Below the pieces are notes generated by a model. It ran no database searches, was not told the DNA's origin, and worked only from the letters and a program-made list of their open reading frames with translations. A stretch of 64,000 nt of DNA from an uncultured Thermoleophilaceae bacterium (lineage in GTDB: Bacteria; Actinomycetota; Thermoleophilia; Solirubrobacterales; Thermoleophilaceae), in assembly GCA_963849605.1 (NCBI GenBank), contig CAWKHX010000002.1, positions 398,424-462,423 on the forward strand, written 5' to 3'. Both the position numbers and the translations under genes were made by a program. Below, one piece after another: positions 9,807 to 23,832 of this stretch (position 1 is its first letter; each line of letters opens with the position of its first letter).

Positions 9807-11236
9807 GGCCGCTCGAGGAGGTGCCGATCGCCGCGCAGTCGCCGGCACGGTTCGAGACCGTGCTGACGGAGACGCAGTGGTCGGACCTCCTCGCGACGAT
9901 CGAGCGCGCGCGGCGCATGATCGACGCGCGCGTCATCTGGAACGTCAACTCCACGGCCCGTGGGGGCGGCGTGGCCGAGCTCCTGCAGTCGCTCGTCGCG
10001 TACGTGCGCGGGGCCGGCTTCGACTGCCGCTGGAGCGTCATCGCCGGAAACCCGGACTTCTTCGCGGTGACCAAGCGGCTCCACAACCGCCTTCACGGCG
10101 CCGCCGGGGACGGCGGTCCGCTCGCTGAGGCGGAGCGGGCGATCTACGAGCAGGTCAGCGACGAGAACGCGCGCGCCCTCCGGCGGGATGTCCGCGCGGG
10201 CGACCTCGTTCTGCTGCACGACCCGCAAACCGCCGGGCTGGTGCGGCCGCTGCTCGACCGCGGGGCACACGTGATCTGGCGCTGCCATGTCGGGCTCGAC
10301 GTGCCAAACGACTTCGCGCGGTCGGCGTGGGACTTCCTGCGGCCGTACCTGGAGGATGCGCGGGCGCACGTGTTCTCGCGCAGGGCGTTCGCCTGGGAGG
10401 ACCTCGACCCCGAGCGGCTGTTCGTCATTCCGCCCTCGATCGACGTCTTCACCCCCAAGAACCAGCCGCTCGAGCCGCAGACCGTCTCCGCGATCCTCGC
10501 GATGGCCGGCCTCGGCGCGGGCAAGCCTCCCCGCGAAGCGCCGGTGTTCACACGCACGGATGGATCCCCGGAGCGCGTCGATGCCCGTGCCGAGGTGATC
10601 GAGGACGCGGCGCTGCCGGCGTCGGTACCGATCGTGACCCAGGTCTCGCGCTGGGACCGGCTCAAGGATCCCGCCGGGGTTCTCGAGGCGTTCGCGAGCA
10701 CCATCGCACCGCAGACCGACGCGCATCTGGTGCTCGCCGGTCCCGCCGTCGCGGCGGTCGCCGACGACCCGGAGGGCGCAGAGGTGCTGCGGGAGGTGGC
10801 GGTGCAGCGCGAGCAGCTTCCCGGCGAGGTCCGGTCGCGCGTTCATCTGGCGCTGCTCCCGATGGACGACGTCGAGGAGAACGCCGCGATCGTGAACGCG
10901 CTCCAGCGCCACTCCGACGTCGTGTGCCAGAAGAGTCTCGCCGAGGGGTTCGGCCTGACGGTCGCGGAGGCGATGTGGAAGGCGCGGCCGGTCGTCGCGT
11001 CGGCGGTCGGCGGGATCCAGGATCAGATCGTCGACGGCGAGACGGGCGTGCTTGTGGACGCGCGCGACCTGGACGCCTTCGGGCGCGCCGTCACGGGCCT
11101 GCTGAACGACCCCGCACGCGCAGCGCGGCTGGGCGAGCAGGCTCGGATCCGCGTACGCGAGGCGTTCCTCGGGCCGCGCCACCTCACGCAGTACGTCGAT
11201 CTCTTCGACCACGTGCTGCGCGAAGCGGCTCGGTAG
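9782..11236 (+). CDS. GT4-family glycosyltransferase (trehalose-synthase/TreT-like)
   Basis: C-terminal GT-B motif SLAEGFGLTVAEAMWKARPVVASAVGGIQDQI. ATG 9782 is in frame within track ORF 9476..11236. Confidence 0.75.
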   Translation: MARDAQELRPLEEVPIAAQSPARFETVLTETQWSDLLATIERARRMIDARVIWNVNSTARGGGVAELLQSLVAYVRGAGFDCRWSVIAGNPDFFAVTKRLHNRLHGAAGDGGPLAEAERAIYEQVSDENARALRRDVRAGDLVLLHDPQTAGLVRPLLDRGAHVIWRCHVGLDVPNDFARSAWDFLRPYLEDARAHVFSRRAFAWEDLDPERLFVIPPSIDVFTPKNQPLEPQTVSAILAMAGLGAGKPPREAPVFTRTDGSPERVDARAEVIEDAALPASVPIVTQVSRWDRLKDPAGVLEAFASTIAPQTDAHLVLAGPAVAAVADDPEGAEVLREVAVQREQLPGEVRSRVHLALLPMDDVEENAAIVNALQRHSDVVCQKSLAEGFGLTVAEAMWKARPVVASAVGGIQDQIVDGETGVLVDARDLDAFGRAVTGLLNDPARAARLGEQARIRVREAFLGPRHLTQYVDLFDHVLREAAR

Positions 11237-11932: not shown

Positions 11933-13129
11933 GTGTTCGTGTCAGCCGATGCGACCGTCCTCCACGCGGACCTCGACTCCTTTTACGCGTCGGTCGAGCA
12001 GCGTGACGCCCCGCGGCTGAGGGGCCGCCCGGTGATCGTCGGCGGCGGGGTCGTGCTGGCCGCCAGCTACGAGGCGAAGAAGCACGGTGTCCAGGGCGGG
12101 ATGGGCGGCTCCGAGGCTCGGCGGAGGTGCCCGCAGGCAATCGTTGTGCCGCCCCGGATGGCCGCCTACTCCGAGGCCAGCAAGGCCGTGTTCGAGATCT
12201 TCGAGCAGACCTCGCCCGTCGTCGAGCCGCTCTCGATCGACGAGGCGTTCCTCGACACGCACGGGATGGAGGCTGTGTTCGGCACGCCCGAGCAGATCGC
12301 GACCCGGCTGCGCCGCGCGGTGCGGCAGGGCGTCGGGCTTCCGATCACCGTCGGGGTCGCGCGGACCAAGTTCCTCGCGAAGGTCGCGAGCGCCGTCGCG
12401 AAGCCGGACGGCCTGCTGGTGGTGCCACCCGGCAACGAGCTCGGCTTCCTCCACCCCCTCCCCATCGAGTACCTCTGGGGCGTCGGTCCCGTGACCTCGC
12501 GCAAGCTTCGCGCAGCCGGCCTTCCGACCGTGCGGGACGTCGCCGGGGCGGACGAGCGGGCGCTCGTCGAGCTGCTCGGGCGGGCTGCCGGTCGCCACAT
12601 CCACGCGCTCGCGCACAACCGCGACCCGCGGCGCGTGCGCGGCCGGCGGCGGCGGTCGATGGGCTCGCAGCGCGCGCTAGGCCGGCGCGCGCCCAAGTCG
12701 CCCGAGGACATCGACGCCACCATCGTCGCGCTCGTCGACCGGCTCGCTCGCCGGCTGCGAGCGGCCCGCCGCGTGTGCCGGACCGTCACGCTCCGGCTGC
12801 GCTTCGACGACTACTCGCGCGCGACTCGCGCACACACGCTCTCCGAAGCCACGGCGCAGACGCAGACGATCCTCGCGACGGCGCGCAAGCTGCTCGCCGC
12901 CGCGATGCCGATGATCGAGCGGAACGGCCTCACGCTCGTCGGAGTGGCGCTCGGCAACCTCGCCGACGACGGCGCAGTCCAGCTCGCGCTGCCGCTCGAG
13001 GACCACCGCGCAGCGGCCCTCGACGTGACGCTCGACACCCTGCGCGACCGCTACGGCTCCGGGGTGGTCACGCGCGCGGTGCTGCTCGGGCGCCCCACCG
13101 GCCCGGCGGTCCCTCTGCTGCCGGACTAG
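11933..13129 (+). CDS. dinB: DNA polymerase IV (Y-family)
   Basis: VLHADLDSFYASVEQRD, SIDEAFLD and GVARTKFLAKVAS motifs. Confidence 0.9.
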   Translation: MFVSADATVLHADLDSFYASVEQRDAPRLRGRPVIVGGGVVLAASYEAKKHGVQGGMGGSEARRRCPQAIVVPPRMAAYSEASKAVFEIFEQTSPVVEPLSIDEAFLDTHGMEAVFGTPEQIATRLRRAVRQGVGLPITVGVARTKFLAKVASAVAKPDGLLVVPPGNELGFLHPLPIEYLWGVGPVTSRKLRAAGLPTVRDVAGADERALVELLGRAAGRHIHALAHNRDPRRVRGRRRRSMGSQRALGRRAPKSPEDIDATIVALVDRLARRLRAARRVCRTVTLRLRFDDYSRATRAHTLSEATAQTQTILATARKLLAAAMPMIERNGLTLVGVALGNLADDGAVQLALPLEDHRAAALDVTLDTLRDRYGSGVVTRAVLLGRPTGPAVPLLPD

Positions 13130-15237
13130 GCGACCGTCTCGGATGGCTCCGAGAACCCGAGCCGCTCATGCAGGCGCCGCAGCGGGCGCGGCGCCCACCA
13201 GTTCCATTGGCCGAGCATGCGCATCAGCGCCGGGACGAGCAGAGCGCGGATGATCGATGCGTCGATCAGGACCGCCGCGGCCTGCGCGAAGCCCACCTCC
13301 TTCATGAAGAAGATCGAGCTGCTCGTGAACGCGAGGAACACGACGGCAAGCATCACCGCCGCGGCCGTGATGACGCGGCCTGTCCGCTCGATCCCGAGCG
13401 CGACCGCCGTCTCGTTGTCCTCGCCCGCGTCGTGGTACTCCTTGATCCGCGCCAGGACAAGCACCGCGTAGTCCGTCGCCAGGCCGAACGTCGTGGCGCC
13501 GACGACCACGAGCAGGGCGGTCTCGATCGCCTCGGGCCCGTTGTAGTCGAAGAGCCCCGACCCGAAGCCGTCCTCGAACACGAGCACCGTCAATCCGAAC
13601 GCGGCCACGATGCTGAAGACGTTCATCACGAGCGTCTTGAGCGGCAGAATCACCGACCCCGTCAGCAGGAAGAGGAGGATGAACGTGCTCGTGGCGACCA
13701 GCCCGGCGACGAGCGGGGCGTGGTCGATCAGGCTCTGCTTGAAGTCGATGAACTCGGCGCTCGCGCCGCCCACACGGCTGCCAGCCCCGGCGATCGAGCG
13801 GATCGACCGGGCGGTGTCCTGTGCCGCCGAGCTGAGCGGCTCGTCGACCGGCGTCGCCTCCAGCAGTGCGAGGTCGTTTCCGAGCGGCTGCGGCCGCGAC
13901 ACCGCGCGGACGCCGGCGAGCTCGGCGGTCTCCGCGCGCACGCGCGTCACATCGGCTCGGTCCACCGTGGCGGTGATCGGAGAGTCGAGGTTCGGCGTGA
14001 ACTCGGCGTCGATCGCGTCGGTCACCGTGCGCGCGTCGCGGCCCTCTGGCACCGACTGGTTGCCGGGCTGTACGAGCGTGGCACTCGCGAGCGGCAGCGC
14101 CGCCGCCACGAGCACGAGCGAGACCGCAAGGGCGACCGAGACCGGACGCCGCATCACCATCTGAGCGACGCGGAACCACCGTCCCGAGCCAACCGGCGGC
14201 GGCGGCGCGCGCCGCAGGCTCAGCGCGTTCACGCGCTCCCCAAGCAGCGCGAGCATTGCCGGAATCGCGAGCAACGCCCCGCCCGCCGCGAGCAGGGACA
14301 CGGCGGCGGCGCCGGCTCCCATCGAATAGAGGAAGCGTTGGGGCAGGACGATCATGGCCGCCGCGGCGGCGGCGACGGTCAGCCCGCTGAAGAAGATCGC
14401 TCGGCCCGCCGTCTCGACGGTGCGCCGGTGTGCCTCCCACCCGGGCCCTGAGCGCTCGAGCTCCTCGCGGTAGCGCGACACGAGCAGCAGCCCGTAGTCC
14501 ACCGCCAGGCCAAGGCCGAGCGCCGTCGTGATGTTCAGCGCGAAGATCGAGATCTCGCTGAACTCGCTCAGCACGCGCAGGGAGAGGAACGTGCCGACGA
14601 CGGCGAATCCCCCGATCAGCAGCGGGAGCGCCGCCGCAACCATTCCTCGGAACACGAGCAGCAGCAGCAGCGCGAGGATCGGGAAGGCGATCAGCTCGGC
14701 GCGCGTCAGGTCGTCGCGCACGGTGTCGTTTACGTCGTTGAATCCGACCGCGAAGCCGCCGACGGTCAGGTCGAGCTCCTCGGACTGCAGCGTCGGCGGG
14801 ATCCGCTCCGCGGCGTCCTCGAGGTCGGCCTGGTCCGTGTGCGCGAAGTGGCCGAGTATCAGCGCGGCGCCGCCGTCGCGCGAGACGAGCTGGGGTGAGG
14901 TGCGCGGCTCGAACGGCGTCCGGACCGCGGCAATCTCTGGATCGTCCGCCAGGACCTGCGCGAGGCGCTGAATCTCGGCTCTCGCCGTCGGCGTGCGCGC
15001 GTCGCCCTCGGGCGCTCGCGCCACGACCACGAGGCCCGGCGAGGGGTCGCGGCCGAGCATCTCCGCCGCCTGGTCGACCGCCCGCGCGCTCTCCGACCCC
15101 GGATCGGTGAACCCCGCCGGCTTGAGGCGATCGGCGACGTCACCGCCCGCCACGATCGCGAGCGCGACGAACGCCACGATCCCGGTCAGGACCCACTTGG
15201 GGTGCGCGTACGTCAGGCGGGCGAGGCGGTTGAACAC
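13126..15237 (-). CDS. MMPL-family (RND superfamily) membrane transporter
   Basis: About 700 aa with two 6-TM bundles and two periplasmic loops, MMPL-like. GTG 15237 (VFNRLARLTYAHPKW) preferred over ATG 15318. Confidence 0.8.
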   Translation of the reverse strand: MFNRLARLTYAHPKWVLTGIVAFVALAIVAGGDVADRLKPAGFTDPGSESARAVDQAAEMLGRDPSPGLVVVARAPEGDARTPTARAEIQRLAQVLADDPEIAAVRTPFEPRTSPQLVSRDGGAALILGHFAHTDQADLEDAAERIPPTLQSEELDLTVGGFAVGFNDVNDTVRDDLTRAELIAFPILALLLLLVFRGMVAAALPLLIGGFAVVGTFLSLRVLSEFSEISIFALNITTALGLGLAVDYGLLLVSRYREELERSGPGWEAHRRTVETAGRAIFFSGLTVAAAAAAMIVLPQRFLYSMGAGAAAVSLLAAGGALLAIPAMLALLGERVNALSLRRAPPPPVGSGRWFRVAQMVMRRPVSVALAVSLVLVAAALPLASATLVQPGNQSVPEGRDARTVTDAIDAEFTPNLDSPITATVDRADVTRVRAETAELAGVRAVSRPQPLGNDLALLEATPVDEPLSSAAQDTARSIRSIAGAGSRVGGASAEFIDFKQSLIDHAPLVAGLVATSTFILLFLLTGSVILPLKTLVMNVFSIVAAFGLTVLVFEDGFGSGLFDYNGPEAIETALLVVVGATTFGLATDYAVLVLARIKEYHDAGEDNETAVALGIERTGRVITAAAVMLAVVFLAFTSSSIFFMKEVGFAQAAAVLIDASIIRALLVPALMRMLGQWNWWAPRPLRRLHERLGFSEPSETVA

Positions 15238-15336
15238 TGACTTGCCCCGTACTCTTGCGTAAGAACCGACCAAAATGCGGGGCAAGCGCGCGCGGTGGGT
15301 TCGCCGTGGCTGGCACAAGGGGACTAACCGCTCAAG

Positions 15337-15597
15337 ATGCTGCTGATGGTTGGCGCCTTCATCGTCCCCGTCGGGCTCATGGCGGTCTTCGGCCCGTCCT
15401 GGCCGCTCGTGGCGCTCGCCGTCGGGAGCTTCATTGCGGGCGCGTTCGCAACGGGCCTGACGCGAGCTTCAGCGGCCGGCGACCGCCAGATGGCGGAGCC
15501 GATCGACGACCTCGACCCGACCTGGCAGGCGTTCATGATCGCCGTCGAGCGCGGCGGCGCGCCAGAGCCGTACGAGCTCGATCTGCCGTTGCGCTAG
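15337..15597 (+). CDS. small hypothetical membrane protein (2 TM)
   Basis: 86-aa ORF with high GC3 and two hydrophobic helices. Confidence 0.5.
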   Translation: MLLMVGAFIVPVGLMAVFGPSWPLVALAVGSFIAGAFATGLTRASAAGDRQMAEPIDDLDPTWQAFMIAVERGGAPEPYELDLPLR

Positions 15598-16361
15598 CGC
15601 AGAGCGCGCCGGCGCCCTCTGACCCAGAAGACGACCATGACTACCGCCGGCGGCACCGTGCCGGGCAGCGAGTCGACGACCAGGAAGAGCTGGTTGAACA
15701 GCTCGGCGGCCGCGAAGGTGGCCAGCGCAGCAATCGCCTGGGGCGACCGCTCGGCGGCCAGGATGGCGCCCACCAGCCCAGCGACGAAGTAATCGCCGTA
15801 GTCCGTTGAGACATCACCGATGTCAGCGACCTGCAGTCGAGGCAGGCCGGCGGCCGGTGCGGCCGCGTTGAACTGCGCATTCTGCTCGCCGAAGAAATCC
15901 CCGAAGATGAAGATGGCGTCGATCGTGGCCATCGCGATGACCCCGAGCTTCAGGAGCATGAGAGGGGCCGCACCTGCGAGCAGCCGTCCCGCGGTCACGA
16001 CCGACCCGACGATCAGGGCGAGCCTGCTGGCACGACCGAGCGGGTCATCGGGCGCGATCAGCGCCGCCGTCAGCAGAGGCACGACGAGCACCGCCATCCA
16101 GGGCCTCGCGCCGTGCATCGCCCAGCCCAGCGCAAGTGCGCAGCCGGGCGGCACGAGGAGAAACGCGAGCCATGTGTACACGTCCGCGCTGGTGGCGGTC
16201 AGGGTGACCGTGGCCGCCACGACGACCACGGCCAGCGGCGCCACGAGCGACCACCCGCGGCCTGTGAACCGCGACAAGACGGCAGGCACTCCTGCTGCTG
16301 GGAGCGCGACGCAGAGCGCCTGGGCGGCGTCGAGCAGTGCCGTGTCGGGCTCGAAGTACAC
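15594..16361 (-). CDS. hypothetical polytopic membrane protein
   Basis: 255-aa ORF with 6-8 predicted helices. No family recognised. Confidence 0.6.
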   Translation of the reverse strand: MYFEPDTALLDAAQALCVALPAAGVPAVLSRFTGRGWSLVAPLAVVVVAATVTLTATSADVYTWLAFLLVPPGCALALGWAMHGARPWMAVLVVPLLTAALIAPDDPLGRASRLALIVGSVVTAGRLLAGAAPLMLLKLGVIAMATIDAIFIFGDFFGEQNAQFNAAAPAAGLPRLQVADIGDVSTDYGDYFVAGLVGAILAAERSPQAIAALATFAAAELFNQLFLVVDSLPGTVPPAVVMVVFWVRGRRRALR

Positions 16362-16387: not shown

Positions 16388-16825
16388 GTGAACCCGCGCT
16401 TCAGGGTCATCGCACGGCGGACGGCCGTCGTCGCCGCCGTCGCGTCGCAACTCTTCTTCGTCGCGCGCGGCTACTGGGCGGACCACAAGGAGTTCGCGTT
16501 TCAGATGTTCCCGGAGTCGAGCACCTGGCGGGCGGACGTGGTCCGAGTGACCGCCGACGGCCGGCGCGTGCCCGTCGAAACTCCGTGGGCGGGGTACCGG
16601 TGGGCCGAGCTGGTGCCGAACGAGGGACTGAGTTACCCCTCAATTCGCCGCCACGCGACCGCCGGGCTCGACAACCAGCTCGCGTTTCTCGACTCCGCGC
16701 TCGACTGGGTGGCCGAGAACACTCCGCGCGACCATGAGACCCGGTACCTCGAGGCCACCGTCACGTCCTGGCACAACGACGACCAGCCGCAAGTCTCAGT
16801 CCTGCGAAGTGAGACGCGGCAGTGA
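16388..16825 (+). CDS. small N-terminally anchored protein, first gene of the HTTM operon (SdpA-like by position only)
   Basis: 145 aa with one TM helix. Its stop overlaps the GTG start of the HTTM gene (GTGA). Confidence 0.6.
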   Translation: MNPRFRVIARRTAVVAAVASQLFFVARGYWADHKEFAFQMFPESSTWRADVVRVTADGRRVPVETPWAGYRWAELVPNEGLSYPSIRRHATAGLDNQLAFLDSALDWVAENTPRDHETRYLEATVTSWHNDDQPQVSVLRSETRQ

Positions 16826-17959
16826 CCACCGTCGAGCTCGGTGCGCAGCGATCGATCGGCGCCCTGACGGCGGCGTTCGACGACCTGCTCGGCCGTCCGG
16901 TCAGCATCCGGGCCCTCGAGCTGCTCAGGGTGCTGGTCGGCCCGGTCGTGCTCCTGCACCTGCAGCCGTTCCTCTCCGACAGCCTGGACGGGCGCATCTA
17001 CAGCGACGCCTTCCACGAGCCCTACGCGGCGTGGTATCCGGAGGCGCCCGACGTGGTCTACACCGGCTTGCTCTGGCTGGCCGCCCTGGCCGCCGTCGCC
17101 ATGTCGCTCGGCCTGCTCACGCGCGTGGCCACGGCGACGACCTTCGCGATCGTCACCTACAACCTGTTCCTATCGACCACCCACTTCCACAACAACCGCG
17201 CGTACCTGGTGATCGTGCTGGGGCTGCTGACCGTCGCGCCGTGTGGACGAGAGCTGTCAGTGGACGCGTGGCTTCGCCGCCGCCGGGGGCAACCGGTGCC
17301 GGACCTCCGGGCGCCGGCCTGGCCGCTCTGGCTGCTGCGGTTCGAGTGCGCGGCGATCTACGGCGCATCTGGACTGAGCAAGCTGGTGGATCCCGACTGG
17401 TTCGGCGGCACCGTGAGCTGGCAGCGAGTCGTGCGGGCGCGCGACGACCTGGAGGCGTGGCCGCTGCCAGACTGGGCGATCTCCCTGCTCACCGACCGGA
17501 CCTTCCACACCGGGGCGGCCAAGTTCATCGTGCTCACCGAGCTGTTCATCGCGATCGGGCTGTGGCTGCGCCGCACCCGCTACGCGGCCGTGTGGGTGGC
17601 CGTCGTCTTCCACGTGATGATCGAGGCGTCGGCGTCGGTGCAGGTCTTCTCGCTTCTCGGCATAGCGGTGCTCTTGGTCTGGGCGACACCTTCGACGCGC
17701 GATCGCGTCATTCGCATCGATCCGACAAGCGCCGGGCACCGGCGATTGTGCGCGGTGGTCCGTGCGCTCGACTGGCTGGCCCGGTTCCGCGTCGAAACAG
17801 CTCCACCCCGCTCCGCGCTTGAGGTCGTGGACCGGGACGGCACGAGGCTGCGCGGAGCCGCCGGCCACCGGGATGGTCTTCAGTCGGCTTCCGCTGACGG
17901 CCTGGTTCGCCCTCCCGACCCTGCTCCTCCCCGGCGTCCGCCGCGCCCCCGCGCGATGA
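16822..17959 (+). pseudogene. HTTM-domain (SdpB / vitamin-K-dependent gamma-carboxylase-like) membrane protein with a degenerate DCC/DUF393-like C-terminal tail, frame change near 17850-17875
   Basis: Multi-pass HTTM-like N-terminus (RALELLRVLVGP.., HFHNNRAYL). After ..EVVDRDGTRLRGAA the coding signal (GC3 about 90% by hand count) moves to the frame of ORF 17762..17959. That frame ends in an ATGA overlap with the next gene. Confidence 0.65.
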
Positions 17960-19729
17960 TCGGCGGTCGGGTGTTGCGGGCCGGTCTGACCCTGGCCCTG
18001 ATCCTGGTCGCGTCGTTCGCGGTCGCGGCCCCGCCGGAGGACTGCCCGTCCGTTACAGCGGCCGAGCTGCGGCACTCGGCGCAGGCCGGTGTCGATTGGT
18101 TCGTCAGGAACCAGGATCCCGACGGCACGTGGCTCTACCTGTACGACGCGGAGGACGACTCGACGTCGCCCGAGTACAACGAGGTTCGCCATGCCGGAGC
18201 GACGATGGGCCTCTACCAGGCCGCGGCGGCCGGGCTGCCGCGGGCGGCGCGCTCCGCCGACCGGGGTCTCGAATGGGCGCTCGACAACGTGGTCGAACAC
18301 GAGGACTGGTCCGCGTTCGGCGGGACGGGGCGAGTGACAACCGGCGCGACGGCGCTCCTGGCCGCCGGGCTGACGTACCGGAGGGAGATCACGGGCGACA
18401 CCCGCTACGACCATCTGATGCGCCGGCTCGGGCGCTTCCTGCTCGGCCAGATGGAGCCGTCCGGCGCCGTCTCCGCAAGCTACTCCGAAGCGGACGACGC
18501 CCCGGTGGCTGGCGATTACTCGAAGTACTACACGGGCGAGGCGTACTGGGCCCTGGGCCGTCTGCACACGGCGTTCCCTGGCCAGGGCTGGGGCGAAGCG
18601 GCCGATCGCATCGGCGGCTACCTGGCGAAGTCGCGTGACGATGTCGAGGACTACTGGCCGGCGATTCCCGACCACTGGGCGGCCTACGGGGCCAGCGAGA
18701 CGGTGGAGTTCCCCGAACGCGGCGACCCGCCGCTCACCGACGACGAGCTGGACTATGCGCGCCGGCAGGCCGGGCTGTTCGGCGTGGGTGTCCGCTGGGT
18801 CGCTCAGCAGGCGGGACCCTGGGGCGAGCTCGTGCGCGGGGGCGACACCCCGCGTGGCGGCGGCTACGGGGTGATGAGCGAGGCGCTCACCGGCTGGTGG
18901 CTGACCGCAATGGCGGACCCGCGGCTGTCGGGCCTGCGTGAGCCGGTCGCCCACCGCGCGATGTGCGTGGCCGGACATGCCGTCGAGGCGCAATCGGATG
19001 CCGAGGACGCGGCCGGCGCCGCGCGGCCCGGGCGGGTCGAGGGCGCGTGGTTCCACCACGGCGAGACCCGTATGGACGACCAGCAGCACGCGCTCGCCGG
19101 GCTGCTGAGGACCACTCCGATCGCGGAGGCAAGCGCGGAAGGCTCGTCCGATTCCGGCGATGACGCACCGTCGTGCTGGCTGTGGGCACTCGTGCTCGTC
19201 CTCGCGCTCAACCCGGCGCGCGCCGCGTTCGCCGTCCCGCGCGGCCAACAGGACGCCGCGGGAGGTCCTCGAGGTGTCCGTGACGGGCGGTGCGATCGGC
19301 GGCCTCGCCGTCGTCGCGGCCGCGGCGCTAGCCGACCCGCTGCTGAACGCATTGGACGTCAGCGAACCGTCGTTCCGTGTCGCCGCGGGGATCGTCGCCG
19401 GGCTCGCCGGGATCAGCGACCTGTTCAGGCGACCGCCTCTGCCGGAGCCCGCGCTGCCCGGCCGCCGCGCAGCGCTCGTCCCCATCGCGATTCCAGCCGT
19501 GGCCCGCCCGGCCCTGCTCATTGTCGCCATCGGCGCCGGCGCCGACCAGGGCGTCCTCGTCAGCCTCGGCGCGATGGCGGCCGGTGTCGCGCTGCTGGCC
19601 GGGCTCGTCGCGAGCGTGCCTCAGGAGGGACCCCACGGCCGCGTCCTCCTGTGGGCGAGCCGGCTGCTGGCCGCGGGCCTGGTCGCCGGCGGCGCGATCC
19701 TCACCGTCGACGGGATCTTGGACGTCTAG
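17956..19729 (+). pseudogene. secreted alpha/alpha-toroid (prenyltransferase / terpene-cyclase-repeat-like) domain fused to a MarC-like 6-TM domain, frame change at GGG 19260-19262
   Basis: Signal-like MIGGRVLRAGLTLALILVASFAVAAP and the QW-like motif QDPDGTW. No stop lies in frame before MarC TM1 (LVLALNPARAAF). The rest of MarC (LDVSEPSFRVAAGIVAGL.., ALVPIAIPAV..) is in the frame of ORF 19160..19729. Confidence 0.6.
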
Positions 19730-19752
19730 CTGACGCTACTCCCGCCGCGTGG

Positions 19753-20499
19753 TCATGCCACGCGGTCGGAGCCGGCGTACACGTTCAGGCGGCCCTGTCG
19801 CGCGAACCCACAGAGGGTCATGTCGAGTTCGTCGGCGAGCTGTACGGCCAGCGAGGTCGGCGCGCCGACTCCCACCAGGATCGGTGCGCCGGCGACCGCC
19901 GCCTTCTGCACCAGCTCGAACGCCAGCCGGCCGCTGACGCAGAGGACGTGCCCATGAAGCGGCAGCAGCCCTTCGCGCAGCGCATGGCCGATCACCTTGT
20001 CCATCGCGTTGTGGCGGCCCACGTCCTCGCGCACGAGCCGCAGCTCGCCGTCCGCCGCGAACAACCCGGTCGCATGCACGCCACCCGTGAGCTCGAACCC
20101 CGGCTGTGTGAGCCGATTCGGGAGATCGGCGAGGAGCTCGCGCGACAGAACCGGCCCCGGCGGCAGTGGCGGCGCGTCGACCGCCACCTCGTCGATTGCG
20201 CCCTTGCCGCAGACTCCGCACGACGACGTCGTGTAGAAGCGGCGCCGATCGATGCGGCGGCTCAGCGTTCCCTTGACGTCGACCGTGTTCGCCGCGAGGT
20301 CGTCGGAGAGCCCGACCTCGCATGCCCTGTCGATGAGGCGCTCGCCGTAGAGGAAGCCGAGCGCCAACTCGTCGTCGTGACCGGGCGTGCGCATCGTCAC
20401 CGCGACCGGCTCGCCGGCGACCCGTATCTCGAGTGGCTCTTCGACGGCGACCGCGTCCATCACGCCGTCGCGCTCGACCATCGTGTGATGCCTGCTCAT
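19753..20499 (-). CDS. fdhD: formate dehydrogenase accessory sulfurtransferase FdhD
   Basis: SSCGVCGKG and GRHNAMDKVIG motifs. ATGA overlap with the upstream molybdoenzyme gene. Confidence 0.9.
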   Translation of the reverse strand: MSRHHTMVERDGVMDAVAVEEPLEIRVAGEPVAVTMRTPGHDDELALGFLYGERLIDRACEVGLSDDLAANTVDVKGTLSRRIDRRRFYTTSSCGVCGKGAIDEVAVDAPPLPPGPVLSRELLADLPNRLTQPGFELTGGVHATGLFAADGELRLVREDVGRHNAMDKVIGHALREGLLPLHGHVLCVSGRLAFELVQKAAVAGAPILVGVGAPTSLAVQLADELDMTLCGFARQGRLNVYAGSDRVA

Positions 20500-22796
20500 G
20501 CGGCGCTCCGCTCCAGTCTGATCACGATCGACTTCGAGGTTGGAGTGTTGCTGCCCTCGGCGGTGCTGTCGAGCGGGACGAGCGCGTTCGCCTCCGGGAA
20601 GTAGGCAGCCGCGCATCCGCGCGCGGTGGGGTAACTCGTCGCACGAAACCGCTCGGCGCGGCGCTCGCCGTCGTCCCACTCGCCCACGAGGTCGACATGG
20701 TCACCGTCGCTCAGGCCGCGCTCCTCGAGATCCGCCGGGTGGACCAGCACCACCCTGCGGCCGCCCTTCACGCCCCGATAGCGGTCGTTAAGCCCGTAGA
20801 TCGTCGTGTTGTACTGATCGTGCGAGCGCATCGTCTGGAGCAGCAGGCGTCCCTCGGCCGGCCGAATCGCCTCGAGCTTGTTGACGGACAGCCGCGCACG
20901 GCCCGTCGACGTCGGGAACCGCAGCTCATCCCGAGGCGGGTGCGGCAGGACGAAGCCGTCCGGAAGCCGCTCCTCGAAGCGCTCGAAGCCGGGCACGACC
21001 TGCTCGATCTTCGCGCGCACGCGCGAGTAGTCGGCCTCGAACTCAGACCACGGGATCGGCGGATCGCCGTCGAGCACGCGTCGGGCGAGGCCGCAGACGA
21101 TCGCGACCTCGGAGCGGAGCGCCGCTGAGGCCGGCTCCAGGCGCCCGCGCGACGCATGCACCAGGCTCATCGAGTCCTCGACGGAGACGACCTGCTCGCC
21201 GGACGCCTGCACGTCGCGGTCGCTCCGCGCGAGCGCGGGAAGGATCAGCGCCTGGTCGCCGGTCACGAGGTGAGACCGGTTCAGCTTCGTGGACACCTGC
21301 ACCGTCAGCCGCATGCGCCGCAGCGCGTCCGCGGTTGCATCCGTGTCCGGCGCGGCGCGCAGGAAGTTGCCTCCGAGAGCCATGAACACGCGCGCCCTCC
21401 CCGTGCTCATCGCGCGGATGCTGTCCACGACGTCGAAGCCCGGCTCGCGGGGCGGGCCGAACCCGAACGCCTCTCCCAGGCGGTCCAGGAAGCCGGCCGT
21501 CGGGCGCTCGCAGATGCCCATCGTGCGGTCGCCCTGCACGTTGCTGTGGCCGCGAACGGGGCAGAGCCCCGCGCCCCGGCGGCCGATGTTGCCGCGCAGG
21601 AGCAGGAAGTTCACGATCTCGCGGATCGTCGCGACGGCGTTGCGGTGCTGCGTCAGGCCCATCGCCCAGCACACCACGGTCCGCTCGGATGCGATCACGA
21701 GCTCCGCGGCCTCCTCGATCTCCGCGCGCGCGAGGCCGGTCGCGTACTCCACGTCGGCCCACGACAGCGCCTCGAGCTCGCGCCGCAGCTCGTCGAAGCC
21801 GTCGCAATGCGCCCCGACGAAGTCCCGGTCGAGCGCGTCCGCGTCGAGGACCAGCCGATTCAGCGCCTTGAAGAGCGCGAGGTCGCCGTTCACGCGCACC
21901 TGCAGGAAGAGGTCCGACAGCTGCGTCCCGCGCCCGACGAGTCCCCGCACGGTCTGCGGGTTCTTGAACCGCATCAGGCCGGGCTCCGGCAGCGGGTTCA
22001 CGGTCACGATGCGCGCGCCACGCCGCTTGGCCGTCTCGAGCGAGGTGAGCATGCGCGGGTGGTTCGTGCCCGGGTTCTGGCCGACTACGAGGATCAGGTC
22101 GGCGGCATGGATGTCGTCGAGCGAAACGCTCCCCTTGCCCACGCCCAGCGTCTCCGTGAGCGCGTAGCCGCTCGACTCATGGCAGAGGTTCGAGCAGTCG
22201 GGCAGGTTGTTCGTCCCGAACGCGCGGACGAAGAGCTGGTAGCAGAAGGCCGCCTCGTTGCTCGTTCGCCCGGAGGTGTAGAAGATCGCTTCGTCCGGCG
22301 AGTCGAGCCGGCCGAGCTCGTCCGCGATCAGGCCGAAGGCGTCGTCCCAGGCGATCGGCTCGTAGCGGTCTGAGCCGGAGCGCTTGACCATCGGCTCGGT
22401 CAGCCGCCCGCGCTGTCCCAGCCAGTAGTCCGACTGCTCCGCGAGCTGGCTGATGTCGTAGCGCTCGAAGAACGCGCGCGTCAGATGAGCCTTCGTCGCC
22501 TCCTCCGCCACGGCCTTGACGCCCTGCTCGCAGAAGTCGGCAACGTGCTGGTCCTCGGACTCGGGCCACGCGCACGCCGGGCAGGCGAAGCCGTCCTTCT
22601 GGTTGACGCGCCTGAGCGTGCGGGCCGAACGCACCGGCCCCATCGCCCCAAGCGCGGTGCGCAGCGATTTGAGGACCGACCGCGGCCCGGCGGCGACCTT
22701 CGCCGGCGCGACTACTCGAGGCGAGCGGTCCTCATCGGGCACCGGTTCAGTAAACCAGTGCCGAGCAACGCGTTGGTAACACCCCGCCCGACACAC
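20496..22796 (-). CDS. FdhF/YdeP-family molybdopterin oxidoreductase
   Basis: GFACPACAWPE, NNLPDCSNLCHESSG and a C-terminal MopB barrel. The exact start is uncertain. Confidence 0.85.
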   Translation of the reverse strand: MCRAGCYQRVARHWFTEPVPDEDRSPRVVAPAKVAAGPRSVLKSLRTALGAMGPVRSARTLRRVNQKDGFACPACAWPESEDQHVADFCEQGVKAVAEEATKAHLTRAFFERYDISQLAEQSDYWLGQRGRLTEPMVKRSGSDRYEPIAWDDAFGLIADELGRLDSPDEAIFYTSGRTSNEAAFCYQLFVRAFGTNNLPDCSNLCHESSGYALTETLGVGKGSVSLDDIHAADLILVVGQNPGTNHPRMLTSLETAKRRGARIVTVNPLPEPGLMRFKNPQTVRGLVGRGTQLSDLFLQVRVNGDLALFKALNRLVLDADALDRDFVGAHCDGFDELRRELEALSWADVEYATGLARAEIEEAAELVIASERTVVCWAMGLTQHRNAVATIREIVNFLLLRGNIGRRGAGLCPVRGHSNVQGDRTMGICERPTAGFLDRLGEAFGFGPPREPGFDVVDSIRAMSTGRARVFMALGGNFLRAAPDTDATADALRRMRLTVQVSTKLNRSHLVTGDQALILPALARSDRDVQASGEQVVSVEDSMSLVHASRGRLEPASAALRSEVAIVCGLARRVLDGDPPIPWSEFEADYSRVRAKIEQVVPGFERFEERLPDGFVLPHPPRDELRFPTSTGRARLSVNKLEAIRPAEGRLLLQTMRSHDQYNTTIYGLNDRYRGVKGGRRVVLVHPADLEERGLSDGDHVDLVGEWDDGERRAERFRATSYPTARGCAAAYFPEANALVPLDSTAEGSNTPTSKSIVIRLERSAA

Positions 22797-22824
22797 GGCG
22801 CAAACATGCGCCGCGATGGGTCCG

Positions 22825-23832
22825 TTAGATCCGCAGCTCGCTGGGGACGATCGAAAGCTCGAGCGCGCGATCGGCCCGCAGGACGTAGAGCGTGACCGGC
22901 CGGCCGATCACCTCTCCGACCATCAGGCGCTGGAGATCGTCCACGCCCTCCACGCCGTGGCCGTCTACGGCGACGATGAGGTCCTCGGGCCTGAGCCCGG
23001 CGTGCTCGGCGGGGCTGTCGCGCACGACCTCGACCACTTCGATGCCGGTTGGCCTCCCGACCTGCTCGCGCAGGCGCGGCGGTATCGGCCGGGGCCCGCC
23101 GGCGATCCCGAGGTAGGCCCGAAGGACGCGGCCTTCGCTCATCAGCTGCCCGATGATCCGGCGCGTCGCGCTGTTGATCGGAACGGCTAGGCCCAGGCCG
23201 ACGCCGGCGACCGCGGTGTTCACGCCGACGACGCGTCCGCTTCCGTCGCCCAGCGCGCCGCCGGAGTTGCCCGGGTTGAGCGCCGCGTCGGTCTGAATCA
23301 CGTTGTCCACGACGCGGACGGCGCCGCGCGGCCCCACGGGCAGCGAGCGCCCGAGCGCCGAGACCACCCCCGCCGTCACCGAGCCCGTGAACCCATAGGG
23401 GTTTCCGATCGCCACGACGAGCTGGCCGACGCGCAGTTGCTCGGCATCGCCCAGCTCGGCCGCCGGCAGGTCGCCGTCGTGCGTTCGCAGCACGGCGAGG
23501 TCGGAGAGCGGGTCGGCGCCGACGACCGCGAAGGGGAGCTCGCGCCCGTCGCTGAACGACGCGCGTCCGGAGCTGCGCGATGCGCCCTCGACGACGTGCG
23601 CGGACGTGATCAAGAAGCCATCGGGCGAGATCACCACGCCGCTGCCGCCTCCGGCTCGGCGGCCGCGGTGCGAGATCCGGAGGTTGGCCACCGTCGGGGT
23701 CAGGAACTGCGCAACGGCCGCCACCGTCCGCGAGTACGCATCCAGCGCCTCGCTCTCGGACGGGAGCCGCCGGTCGCGCGGATCGTGTTCTTCACGCCCC
23801 GCTTCTGAGGAGACGAGCCTGAGCGTCCTCAT
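22825..23832 (-). CDS. S1C (HtrA/DegP-like) serine protease with PDZ domain, no signal peptide
   Basis: Catalytic triad context TSAHVV, DLAVL and GNSGGAL, followed by a PDZ-like C-terminus. Confidence 0.85.
   Translation of the reverse strand: MRTLRLVSSEAGREEHDPRDRRLPSESEALDAYSRTVAAVAQFLTPTVANLRISHRGRRAGGGSGVVISPDGFLITSAHVVEGASRSSGRASFSDGRELPFAVVGADPLSDLAVLRTHDGDLPAAELGDAEQLRVGQLVVAIGNPYGFTGSVTAGVVSALGRSLPVGPRGAVRVVDNVIQTDAALNPGNSGGALGDGSGRVVGVNTAVAGVGLGLAVPINSATRRIIGQLMSEGRVLRAYLGIAGGPRPIPPRLREQVGRPTGIEVVEVVRDSPAEHAGLRPEDLIVAVDGHGVEGVDDLQRLMVGEVIGRPVTLYVLRADRALELSIVPSELRI

Follow-up and report, generated by a model that had tools for sequence, protein, structure and literature searches.

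A widespread operon of soil Actinomycetota linking a small membrane protein and an HTTM-family protein to a toroid–MarC-like fusion

A 64,000-nucleotide stretch of DNA from an uncultured Thermoleophilaceae bacterium (GenBank assembly GCA_963849605.1, contig CAWKHX010000002.1; hereafter, the window) contains an operon that encodes a small membrane protein, a protein of the HTTM family, whose eukaryotic homologue is the vitamin-K-dependent carboxylase GGCX, and a fusion of an (alpha/alpha)6 toroid to a MarC-like membrane domain. We find that this operon is a real, widespread and uncharacterised cytoplasmic-membrane or envelope module of soil Actinomycetota. Its anatomy can be stated with high confidence: three translationally coupled genes, with toroid and MarC-like domain on a single polypeptide, and a gene for a 255-residue membrane protein often adjacent. 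The products of the three genes are probably coupled in function as well. A specific mechanism, in which the small and HTTM proteins would form a GGCX-like enzyme, is proposed here by analogy, and tentatively. The explanation as a whole, i.e., the anatomy, the assignment of two frame breaks to assembly errors and the mechanism taken together, is the best we can offer, and we consider it about equally probable to hold or to fail.

Gene organization and conservation of the module

The three genes follow one another on the forward strand of the window. The small-protein gene (16388..16825) encodes 145 residues. The HTTM gene (16822..17959) and the gene for the fusion (17956..19729) encode 378 and 590 residues, respectively, each after the removal of one base. 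Successive genes overlap by four nucleotides. That is, the TGA that ends the small-protein reading frame, at 16823-16825, overlaps the GTG start of the HTTM gene at 16822 (GTGA), and the stop codon of the HTTM gene overlaps the start of the fusion gene at 17956-17959 (ATGA). Both overlaps had been noted from the sequence, together with the translational coupling that they imply; both are indeed present, and they are identical in the relatives at loci L001-L003.

The G+C content of this region is 70-75%, and long spurious open reading frames are common in such DNA; for example, a stop-free frame of 1,260 codons extends from 16822 to 20604. The gene models were therefore checked against relatives. 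Every peptide quoted in the original prediction was found in the frame given for it: the 16822 frame contains VIRIDPTSAGHRRLCAVVRALD; the 17762-17959 frame, MVFSRLPLTAWFALPTLLLPGVRR; the 17956 frame, QDPDGTW, the linker EGSSDSGDDAPS and LVLALNP; and the 19160-19729 frame, SFRVAAGIV, VPIAIPAV and TVDGILDV.

The neighbourhood of these genes is conserved. In a scan that used one genome per species, 477 genomes were found to encode a relative of the fusion. The best 80 of these 477 are all metagenome-assembled genomes, each representing a different species. Going by the titles of their records, Thermoleophilaceae, Solirubrobacterales, Acidimicrobiia and certain Actinomycetes (such as Jiangellaceae and Asanoa) are represented among them. 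Among 84 loci selected by the fusion, the HTTM gene lies directly upstream in 66, and the small gene precedes the HTTM gene in 65. Conversely, when loci were selected via the HTTM protein, the fusion was found downstream in six out of six. The genes stay adjacent in different classes of Actinomycetota, where the proteins are only 54-60% identical.

The fusion family comprises 1,616 clusters at 50% clustering. The best 150 of these clusters include fused forms (about 525-625 residues, down to 32% identity), toroid-only forms (about 375-410 residues) and many shorter fragments. In each toroid-only case examined, all of them more distant relatives, the toroid gene is overlapped or directly followed by a gene for a membrane protein of 172-204 residues; in the two cases with DNA, homology of this downstream protein to the MarC-like domain is evident (33-36% identity, E=3e-8). 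In assembly GCA_041447055.1, the small and HTTM genes form one operon and the separate toroid and MarC-like genes another, and the two operons diverge. That the two domains fuse and separate, and that the linkage outlasts rearrangement, speaks for a functional unit.

The original prediction had spoken of a four-gene neighbourhood that should be conserved in relatives. Conservation was recovered, with a core that consists of three genes; the frequent fourth gene, which encodes the 255-residue protein, is on the opposite strand of the window, at 15594-16361. Open reading frames of at least 70 residues from 87 loci were clustered, and this analysis revealed neither a fifth conserved gene nor a gene for a precursor peptide in that size range; beyond the four components, no cluster occurs in more than 11 of the 87 loci. 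This result agrees with the earlier remark that no SdpC-like substrate gene is evident nearby.

The HTTM and fusion genes are each interrupted once in the window, by the two one-nucleotide frame changes already noted from the sequence. Alignment with the DNA of relatives shows that each of these sites, for which resequencing had been advised, contains one extra G. In the HTTM gene, the additional base is at 17858..17860 (GCC[G]CCGG; forward strand; aligned with L001, L003 and L004). The closest HTTM homologues match the window up to about residue 348 and then read ...RLRGAPATAMVFSRLPLTAWFALPTLLLP..., which is the window's +1 frame; deletion of one base at ~17858-17860 restores ...LRGAPATGMVFSRL..., matching homologue P0002. 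In the fusion gene, the extra base is at 19243..19244 (CGCGC[G]GCC; forward strand; aligned with L001 and L003), and a one-base deletion at ~19243-19244 yields ...AVPRANRTPREV..., colinear with L001. The corrected proteins, of 378 and 590 residues, are colinear with those of the relatives, whose intact genes encode 378 and 591 residues.

At least three ordinary genes of the window are broken in the same manner. In a Pyr_redox_2 oxidoreductase, a +1 break at ~8410 (minus strand) puts profile positions 1-114 and 165-278 into two successive frames; a break at ~28270 divides an APH-family phosphotransferase; and in an acyl-CoA dehydrogenase, a break at ~63310 separates the N-terminal and middle domains from the C-terminal domain. 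All five breaks share one offset, consistent with one added base, and the codon-position G+C signal persists past each break up to a normal stop codon. In long-read assemblies of relatives with contigs named 'contig_', the same genes are broken at other positions. At L088:6155-7970, L089:6134-7916 and L004:7152-8937, for example, the fusion gene is scattered over two to five frames and has been annotated as a series of short genes; automatic annotation of the fusion family in such assemblies is thus unreliable.

Because ordinary genes carry the same +1 break, and because the operon genes of relatives are intact, we conclude that both operon breaks are most likely single-G insertions introduced by the assembly, rather than marks of pseudogenes or programmed frameshifts, and we take the genes to be intact in the organism. 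The window as a whole seems to derive from an assembly with systematic single-base insertions. That the operon is instead decaying in this organism, or expressed through programmed +1 frameshifting, is suggested by the presence of two breaks less than 1.4 kb apart in two neighbouring genes, and is nevertheless very improbable given the same type of break in ordinary genes, the codon-position signal that carries on in the shifted frame to a normal stop, the different break positions in related long-read assemblies, and the lack of the extra base, and hence of a conserved slippery site, in the relatives. Single-base insertions recurrently disrupt high-GC genes of this sort in metagenome assemblies from long reads, and apparently 'split' or 'fused' architectures in such assemblies need to be compared with relatives.

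Domains of the encoded proteins

The second protein is a clear member of the HTTM family, as predicted. Its score against Pfam PF05090 is 87.2 bits, compared with a cut-off of 27.7, and residues 25-289 (16894..17688, forward strand) cover positions 2-256 of the 259 in the profile. All 29 relatives tested also match this family. The protein has more than 2,000 homologues, and is 93% identical to the 378-residue proteins P0001 and P0003 and 92% identical to P0002.

A phmmer search aligned residues 21-199 with human GGCX (chains in the PDB) at E=2e-3. In this alignment, K187, W193 and N125 fall on GGCX Lys218, Trp223 and Asn159, and Arg126 falls on His160; K187, W193, N125 and R126 are invariant in the 29 relatives. 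In GGCX, Lys218 is the general base and Trp223 its stacking partner, while Asn159 and His160 bind the carboxylate of the substrate glutamate and are required for carboxylation (PMC12647623). Lys187, encoded at 17380-17382 on the forward strand, is the putative catalytic lysine. Two cysteines also stand out in the family: Cys141, which is invariant, and Cys176, which is nearly so. The large lumenal clamp domain of GGCX is absent, and the protein ends at residue 378, about 90 residues past the HTTM domain.

These last 90 residues or so (17689..17959, forward strand) constitute a conserved tail with invariant columns (DWLARFRVE ... SRLPxTAWxALPxLxLP) to which no family could be assigned; in one relative, the HTTM protein has 324 residues and a much shorter tail. 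The tail had been read as a degenerate DCC-like (DUF393) segment, and this identification was not upheld. Specifically, the 90-residue tail does not match Pfam PF04134 at E<=1, nor does any of the 29 relatives at E<=10. An hhalign comparison with a DCC1-like probe, which itself scores 120 bits to PF04134, was empty, and in a Smith-Waterman comparison with a DCC1-like probe the z-score relative to shuffled tails was -0.9. In addition, the tail lacks a CxxC motif, and its lone cysteine is R, G, A or D in relatives.

The small protein consists of an Arg-rich N-terminus, one transmembrane helix and an alpha/beta domain of about 115 residues. It has 2,153 homologues, with no Pfam family among them and no NCBIfam match. 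In the AlphaFold2 model, of mean predicted local distance difference test (pLDDT) score 69, a helix at residues 3-26 is followed by strands and another helix; at this level of confidence, the model has no fold match in the PDB (best E=0.36). The most conserved stretch, residues 28-47 (GYWxDHKEFAFQMFPESSTW), is almost invariant and lies right after the transmembrane helix. The same residues are modeled with low confidence in isolation, as would fit a segment that forms an interface with another protein. We considered three identities for the small protein, and none was sustained: DUF5819 is absent from the 10 Pfam families matched by any of 35 members (E<=10), the small protein has no NCBIfam match, SdpA included, and the model has no structural match to the GGCX clamp.

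The third protein is a single uninterrupted reading frame of 591 codons in L001-L003. Toroid and MarC-like domain thus reside on one polypeptide in relatives without any frame correction, in agreement with the fusion inferred from the window. It has 1,443 homologues; the best 120 are about 590 residues long and 62-88% identical, nearly all with 94-100% coverage. Homologues are labelled 'SnatA (MarC family)' in records of the Joint Genome Institute.

The N-terminus of the fusion is a signal peptide or anchor (17956..18030, forward strand; MIGGRVLRAGLTLALILVASFAVAA), apparent from hydropathy and from a helix at residues 2-23 of the model, as had been noted from the sequence. It is followed by a PPExCP motif; in the form APPExCP, this motif is conserved in the family. 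The toroid itself spans residues ~30-395 (18043..19140, forward strand), contains QW-like repeats, and is probably extracytoplasmic. Its prediction from the sequence was borne out by a confident AlphaFold2 model, in which the block-mean pLDDT over residues ~30-395 is mostly 85-97 and falls lower near 220-240 and 290-300. Foldseek related this model to (alpha/alpha)6 barrels, 8PAJ and MstE among them, with probability 1.0, at E ~1e-5, with target-normalised TM-scores mostly of 0.5-0.65 and identities of 10-16%.

At the level of sequence, the sole link is to terpenoid cyclases: a family profile built from diverse members matches 8PAJ, a single-domain squalene-hopene/tetraprenyl-curcumene cyclase, at E=1.1e-4, as well as squalene-hopene cyclase, and these matches run through a QW-like repeat (AVxWLxxNQxxDGxW). 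Scores for SQHop_cyclase/Prenyltrans are 12.8-14.1 bits, below the cut-off of 26.1, and 4 of 32 relatives match at E<=0.1; the toroid has no Pfam family of its own. It lacks the DxDD motif and has an invariant T(R/Q)MDDQQH instead. Across a span of 28-66% identity, the invariant residues are W48, G130, W241, E310, Q347, G364, D375, Q378 and H379, with C30 and C338 near-invariant. Assignment to one specific enzyme family was not possible, since sugar epimerases (of the N-acylglucosamine 2-epimerase type), glycosidases of families GH76 and GH88, and terpene cyclases all match at E ~1e-5.

The C-terminal domain of the fusion (19177..19729, forward strand) is a divergent MarC-like domain, as had been recognized, with probably six helices. 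Hydropathy indicates about five to six hydrophobic segments in the last 183 residues, and the domain features LNPxR in the first transmembrane helix, VPIAIPxxxRP in the fourth and VDGI at the C-terminus. The window copy scores 18.5-19.3 bits against Pfam MarC (PF01914), under the cut-off of 23.9. Matches at E<=0.1 were obtained in 30 of 32 relatives, the best at 1.2e-5; the window copy and homologue P0122 match the same region of the MarC profile (~50-157), and some relatives carry a precomputed PF01914 match. The AlphaFold2 model of this domain has pLDDT <50. The domain has no conserved cysteine.

The 255-residue protein is polytopic, and its gene (15594..16361, minus strand) is divergent from the operon. 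It adjoins the module in 38 of 84 loci (~45%), and in L088 and L089 as well; its gene may be upstream and divergent, upstream and co-directional, or downstream and convergent. No match was found to Pfam (in scans of 21 members), to NCBIfam or to PDB profiles. By eye, the protein resembles the GxGD intramembrane aspartyl proteases, i.e., presenilin and signal peptide peptidase. The motifs ATIDAIFIFGDFF, TDYGDYFVAGLVG and LPGTVPPA(L/V) are ordered as in these proteases; likewise, ID...GDFF, DYGDFFVAGLVG and PPAL follow one another as in presenilin. The Pfam and PDB profile searches lend this likeness no support, and we mention it as a lead only.

Several other genes were noted around the module. 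Between the MMPL gene and that of the 255-residue protein, an open reading frame of 86 codons (15337-15597, forward strand), with two hydrophobic segments and no family match, may encode a real small membrane protein. Further out, at 11933-15318 and 19753-23832, the window encodes a DinB-type polymerase, an MMPL transporter, FdhD, a molybdopterin oxidoreductase and an HtrA-like protease, all verified with Pfam; these genes do not recur beside the module in other loci. On one short metagenome contig, immediately upstream of a split toroid and MarC-like pair, at L085:85-573, a FeS_assembly_P (DUF59/SufT-like) protein takes the place of the small and HTTM proteins. In L089, a second, distant HTTM paralogue (10008-10610; 30% identical to the window protein, with a Pfam HTTM match on a 186-residue fragment called as a gene) is found about 4 kb downstream of the module, followed from 10624 by a 382-residue gene with no family on record, which is cut by the end of the locus.

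A possible GGCX-like enzyme and its alternatives

The analogy that guides our proposal comes from Melghirimyces thermohalophilus, in which a DUF5819 protein and an HTTM–DCC1-like protein are predicted to form a complex resembling the whole of GGCX, with residues of DUF5819 touching the quinone pocket (bioRxiv 10.64898/2026.08.19.745780). By this analogy, the small and HTTM proteins of the window would be the two subunits of a GGCX-like enzyme, and the near-invariant stretch after the transmembrane helix of the small protein would complete the quinone pocket or the active site. Menaquinol and O2 would serve, on the outer side of the membrane, to produce a strong base, which would deprotonate, and probably carboxylate or otherwise modify, a substrate with an anionic group.

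An obligatory partner of this enzyme would be the toroid–MarC protein. Its six-helix carrier domain would move a small molecule or a lipid across or out of the membrane, and the toroid would hold or further process that molecule beside the HTTM active site. The topology is proposed on three grounds: the Arg-rich N-terminus of the small protein suggests an N-in, C-out orientation; the signal or anchor and the conserved cysteine pair of the toroid suggest an extracytoplasmic location; and homology to GGCX would place the HTTM active site on the non-cytoplasmic side. An invariant Arg126 at the position of GGCX His160 suggests that the substrate is anionic, and different from that of GGCX. We regard this mechanism as possible, and less probable than not.

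In its most complete form, the proposal would describe one machine of the envelope, so far undescribed, in which the small, HTTM and fusion proteins, and the 255-residue protein where present, apply strong-base chemistry of the GGCX type, whether carboxylation or some related C-H activation, outside the cytoplasm. This chemistry would be driven by menaquinol and O2, and would act on a lipid or small molecule that a NAAT-type carrier delivers and a cyclase-like toroid holds; an isoprenoid quinone or another polyprenyl compound is a candidate substrate. All of these elements together make for a speculative picture, which we rate well below the functional coupling itself. If true, it would provide a new role for bacterial vitamin-K-dependent enzymes and a first functional context for a MarC-family domain.

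A number of observations weigh against the proposed enzyme. First, Arg126 takes the place of His160, a residue that GGCX requires for carboxylation. Second, the GGCX alignment ends at residue 228, so that D263, F299 and Y395 are not aligned; Phe286 and Met401, which together with these residues form the quinone and CO2 pockets, also lie beyond the aligned region. The alignment could not be extended past residue 228, either with a family profile or with the C-terminal half by itself, and a narrow family profile lost even the initial match. Third, no similarity of the small protein to DUF5819, to SdpA or to the lumenal domain of GGCX could be detected. Fourth, the best structural matches of the toroid are generic, with sugar epimerases and glycosidases besides terpene cyclases, and the MarC-like domain is sub-threshold in the window copy and poorly modeled. 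Lastly, 18 of the 84 loci have the fusion in unrelated contexts with no HTTM gene within 6 kb, and in L086 and L087 the split toroid and MarC-like pair stands alone; the coupling of HTTM protein and fusion is thus frequent, and not absolute.

Those last loci also bear on an alternative explanation, namely that the genes are independent neighbours. The toroid–MarC protein would then be a self-contained transporter, its extracytoplasmic domain binding or enzymatically converting a sugar, a glycan or an amino acid, and the small and HTTM proteins would have an unrelated function. In L034, for instance, the fusion lies in a ribosomal-protein/secY/adk block without the HTTM gene, and the solitary split pairs of L086 and L087 point in the same direction. 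Likewise, the top Foldseek matches of the toroid are sugar epimerases/isomerases and glycoside hydrolases, and the characterised MarC/NAAT members carry neutral amino acids (PMC4608589). However, the adjacency is maintained across classes of Actinomycetota at 54-60% identity, the linkage survives the switch to divergent operons, and the genes overlap by four nucleotides at their stop and start codons. We therefore assign a minor share of the probability to mere neighbourhood, comparable to that of the complete machine described above.

An envelope modification or redox module, as the original prediction had it, is plausible in general terms. In a specific version close to that idea, the HTTM protein would behave like DoxX, MauE and LMF1, its relatives in the same clan, and shuttle electrons between menaquinone and a client in the envelope, and the toroid with its conserved cysteine pair would be the client or an adaptor. 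Weak, sub-threshold matches to MauE and DoxX do occur in members of the HTTM family, and the cysteines Cys141 and Cys176 of the HTTM protein and C30 and C338 of the toroid, as well as the loss of the carboxylation residue His160, would all be in line with thiol chemistry. On the other hand, there is no CxxC motif anywhere in the module; the tail is not DCC-like and its cysteine is not conserved; the MarC-like domain has no conserved cysteine; and the GGCX-specific Lys/Trp/Asn triad is invariant. A quinone-linked thiol module is, in our assessment, slightly less probable than independent neighbours.

The order of a small-protein gene followed by an HTTM gene is that of sdpAB and yitPO (PMC6818787), and HTTM proteins are also found in linaridin clusters (PMC9927463). 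Thus, the operon might encode a system like SdpAB, for the maturation of a peptide toxin or of a peptide that is made by ribosomes and modified after translation (RiPP). Kinship with SdpAB had been suggested from the sequence, and it is retained only in so far as the HTTM domain is shared: the score against the SdpB model TIGR04033 is 15.5 bits, far from its cut-off of 178.4, and the small protein matches neither SdpA nor DUF5819. Moreover, among reading frames of at least 70 residues there is no conserved precursor, immunity or other cluster gene nearby, and no spare intergenic space in the window. A housekeeping role also fits better with the distribution, as the 80 listed loci, out of 477 genomes with a relative, come from 80 different species genomes. 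A toxin- or peptide-maturing function is accordingly improbable.

Comparison with known systems

So far, roles have been assigned to few bacterial homologues of GGCX, namely in toxin maturation (SdpB), in linaridin clusters and, for MloH, as an antibiotic carboxylase. The operon described here links a large HTTM subfamily, from hundreds of mostly uncultured soil species, to a fixed and unexpected partner. It also places the poorly understood MarC family in a genomic context for the first time, and the link between HTTM protein, toroid and MarC-like domain makes concrete experiments possible.

GGCX and the window protein are alike in their HTTM membrane domain, in which the equivalents of Lys218, Trp223 and Asn159 are kept. 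They differ in that the window protein is half as large, lacks a lumenal clamp at the C-terminus, carries an unrelated tail of 90 residues, and has an invariant Arg in place of His160. In GGCX, the clamp domain binds the propeptide of its substrates, whereas no propeptide-bearing substrates are known for the system in the window. MloH is a bacterial HTTM enzyme whose carboxylation chemistry has been shown, as cited in PMC12647623 and bioRxiv 10.64898/2026.08.19.745780. Its HTTM domain and a DUF5819-like region form one protein, encoded in a polyketide synthase–nonribosomal peptide synthetase cluster; in the window, the small partner is separate, and there is no biosynthetic cluster.

Closer in organization are the DUF5819/HTTM–DCC1-like pair, SdpA/SdpB, and YitP/YitO of Bacillus subtilis. 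In all of these, as in the window, a small protein made up of an N-terminal transmembrane helix and a probably extracytoplasmic domain is encoded beside an HTTM protein with a C-terminal extension. Those systems have no toroid–MarC partner, and the window has no gene of the SdpC/YitM type. The likeness between DUF5819 and the small protein is limited to architecture, i.e., a transmembrane helix at the N-terminus with a domain after it, and to gene position.

Toroid and carrier can be compared in the same way. The toroid shares with terpenoid cyclases and prenyltransferases (2SQC, 8PAJ, MstE, AprG) the (alpha/alpha)6 barrel and the QW-like repeats, and differs from the cyclases in lacking DxDD, in its probable extracytoplasmic location, and in its tether to the membrane. 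MarC proteins constitute the NAAT family (TC 2.A.95) of the LysE superfamily, the best-studied member of which transports glycine and alanine (PMC4608589, PMC12003319). The window domain is like SnatA and E. coli MarC in its length of about 185 residues, its probably six hydrophobic segments, an NP in the first helix and P..P...RP in the fourth; unlike them, it is fused to, or translationally coupled with, a toroid of 370 residues that is probably extracytoplasmic.

The original prediction had regarded both the HTTM–DCC and the toroid–MarC architectures as undescribed. The former is in fact reported for the Melghirimyces protein (bioRxiv 10.64898/2026.08.19.745780); for the latter, our literature searches returned no description of the fusion family or of its linkage to HTTM genes. 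The arrangement of an HTTM protein with a small partner is thus a known, uncharacterised theme, which recurs in sdpAB/yitPO, in the DUF5819–HTTM pair, in MloH and in linaridin clusters. What the module of soil Actinomycetota would add to this theme, if the analogy with GGCX holds, is a conserved toroid–MarC partner of a bacterial, GGCX-like, two-component HTTM system.

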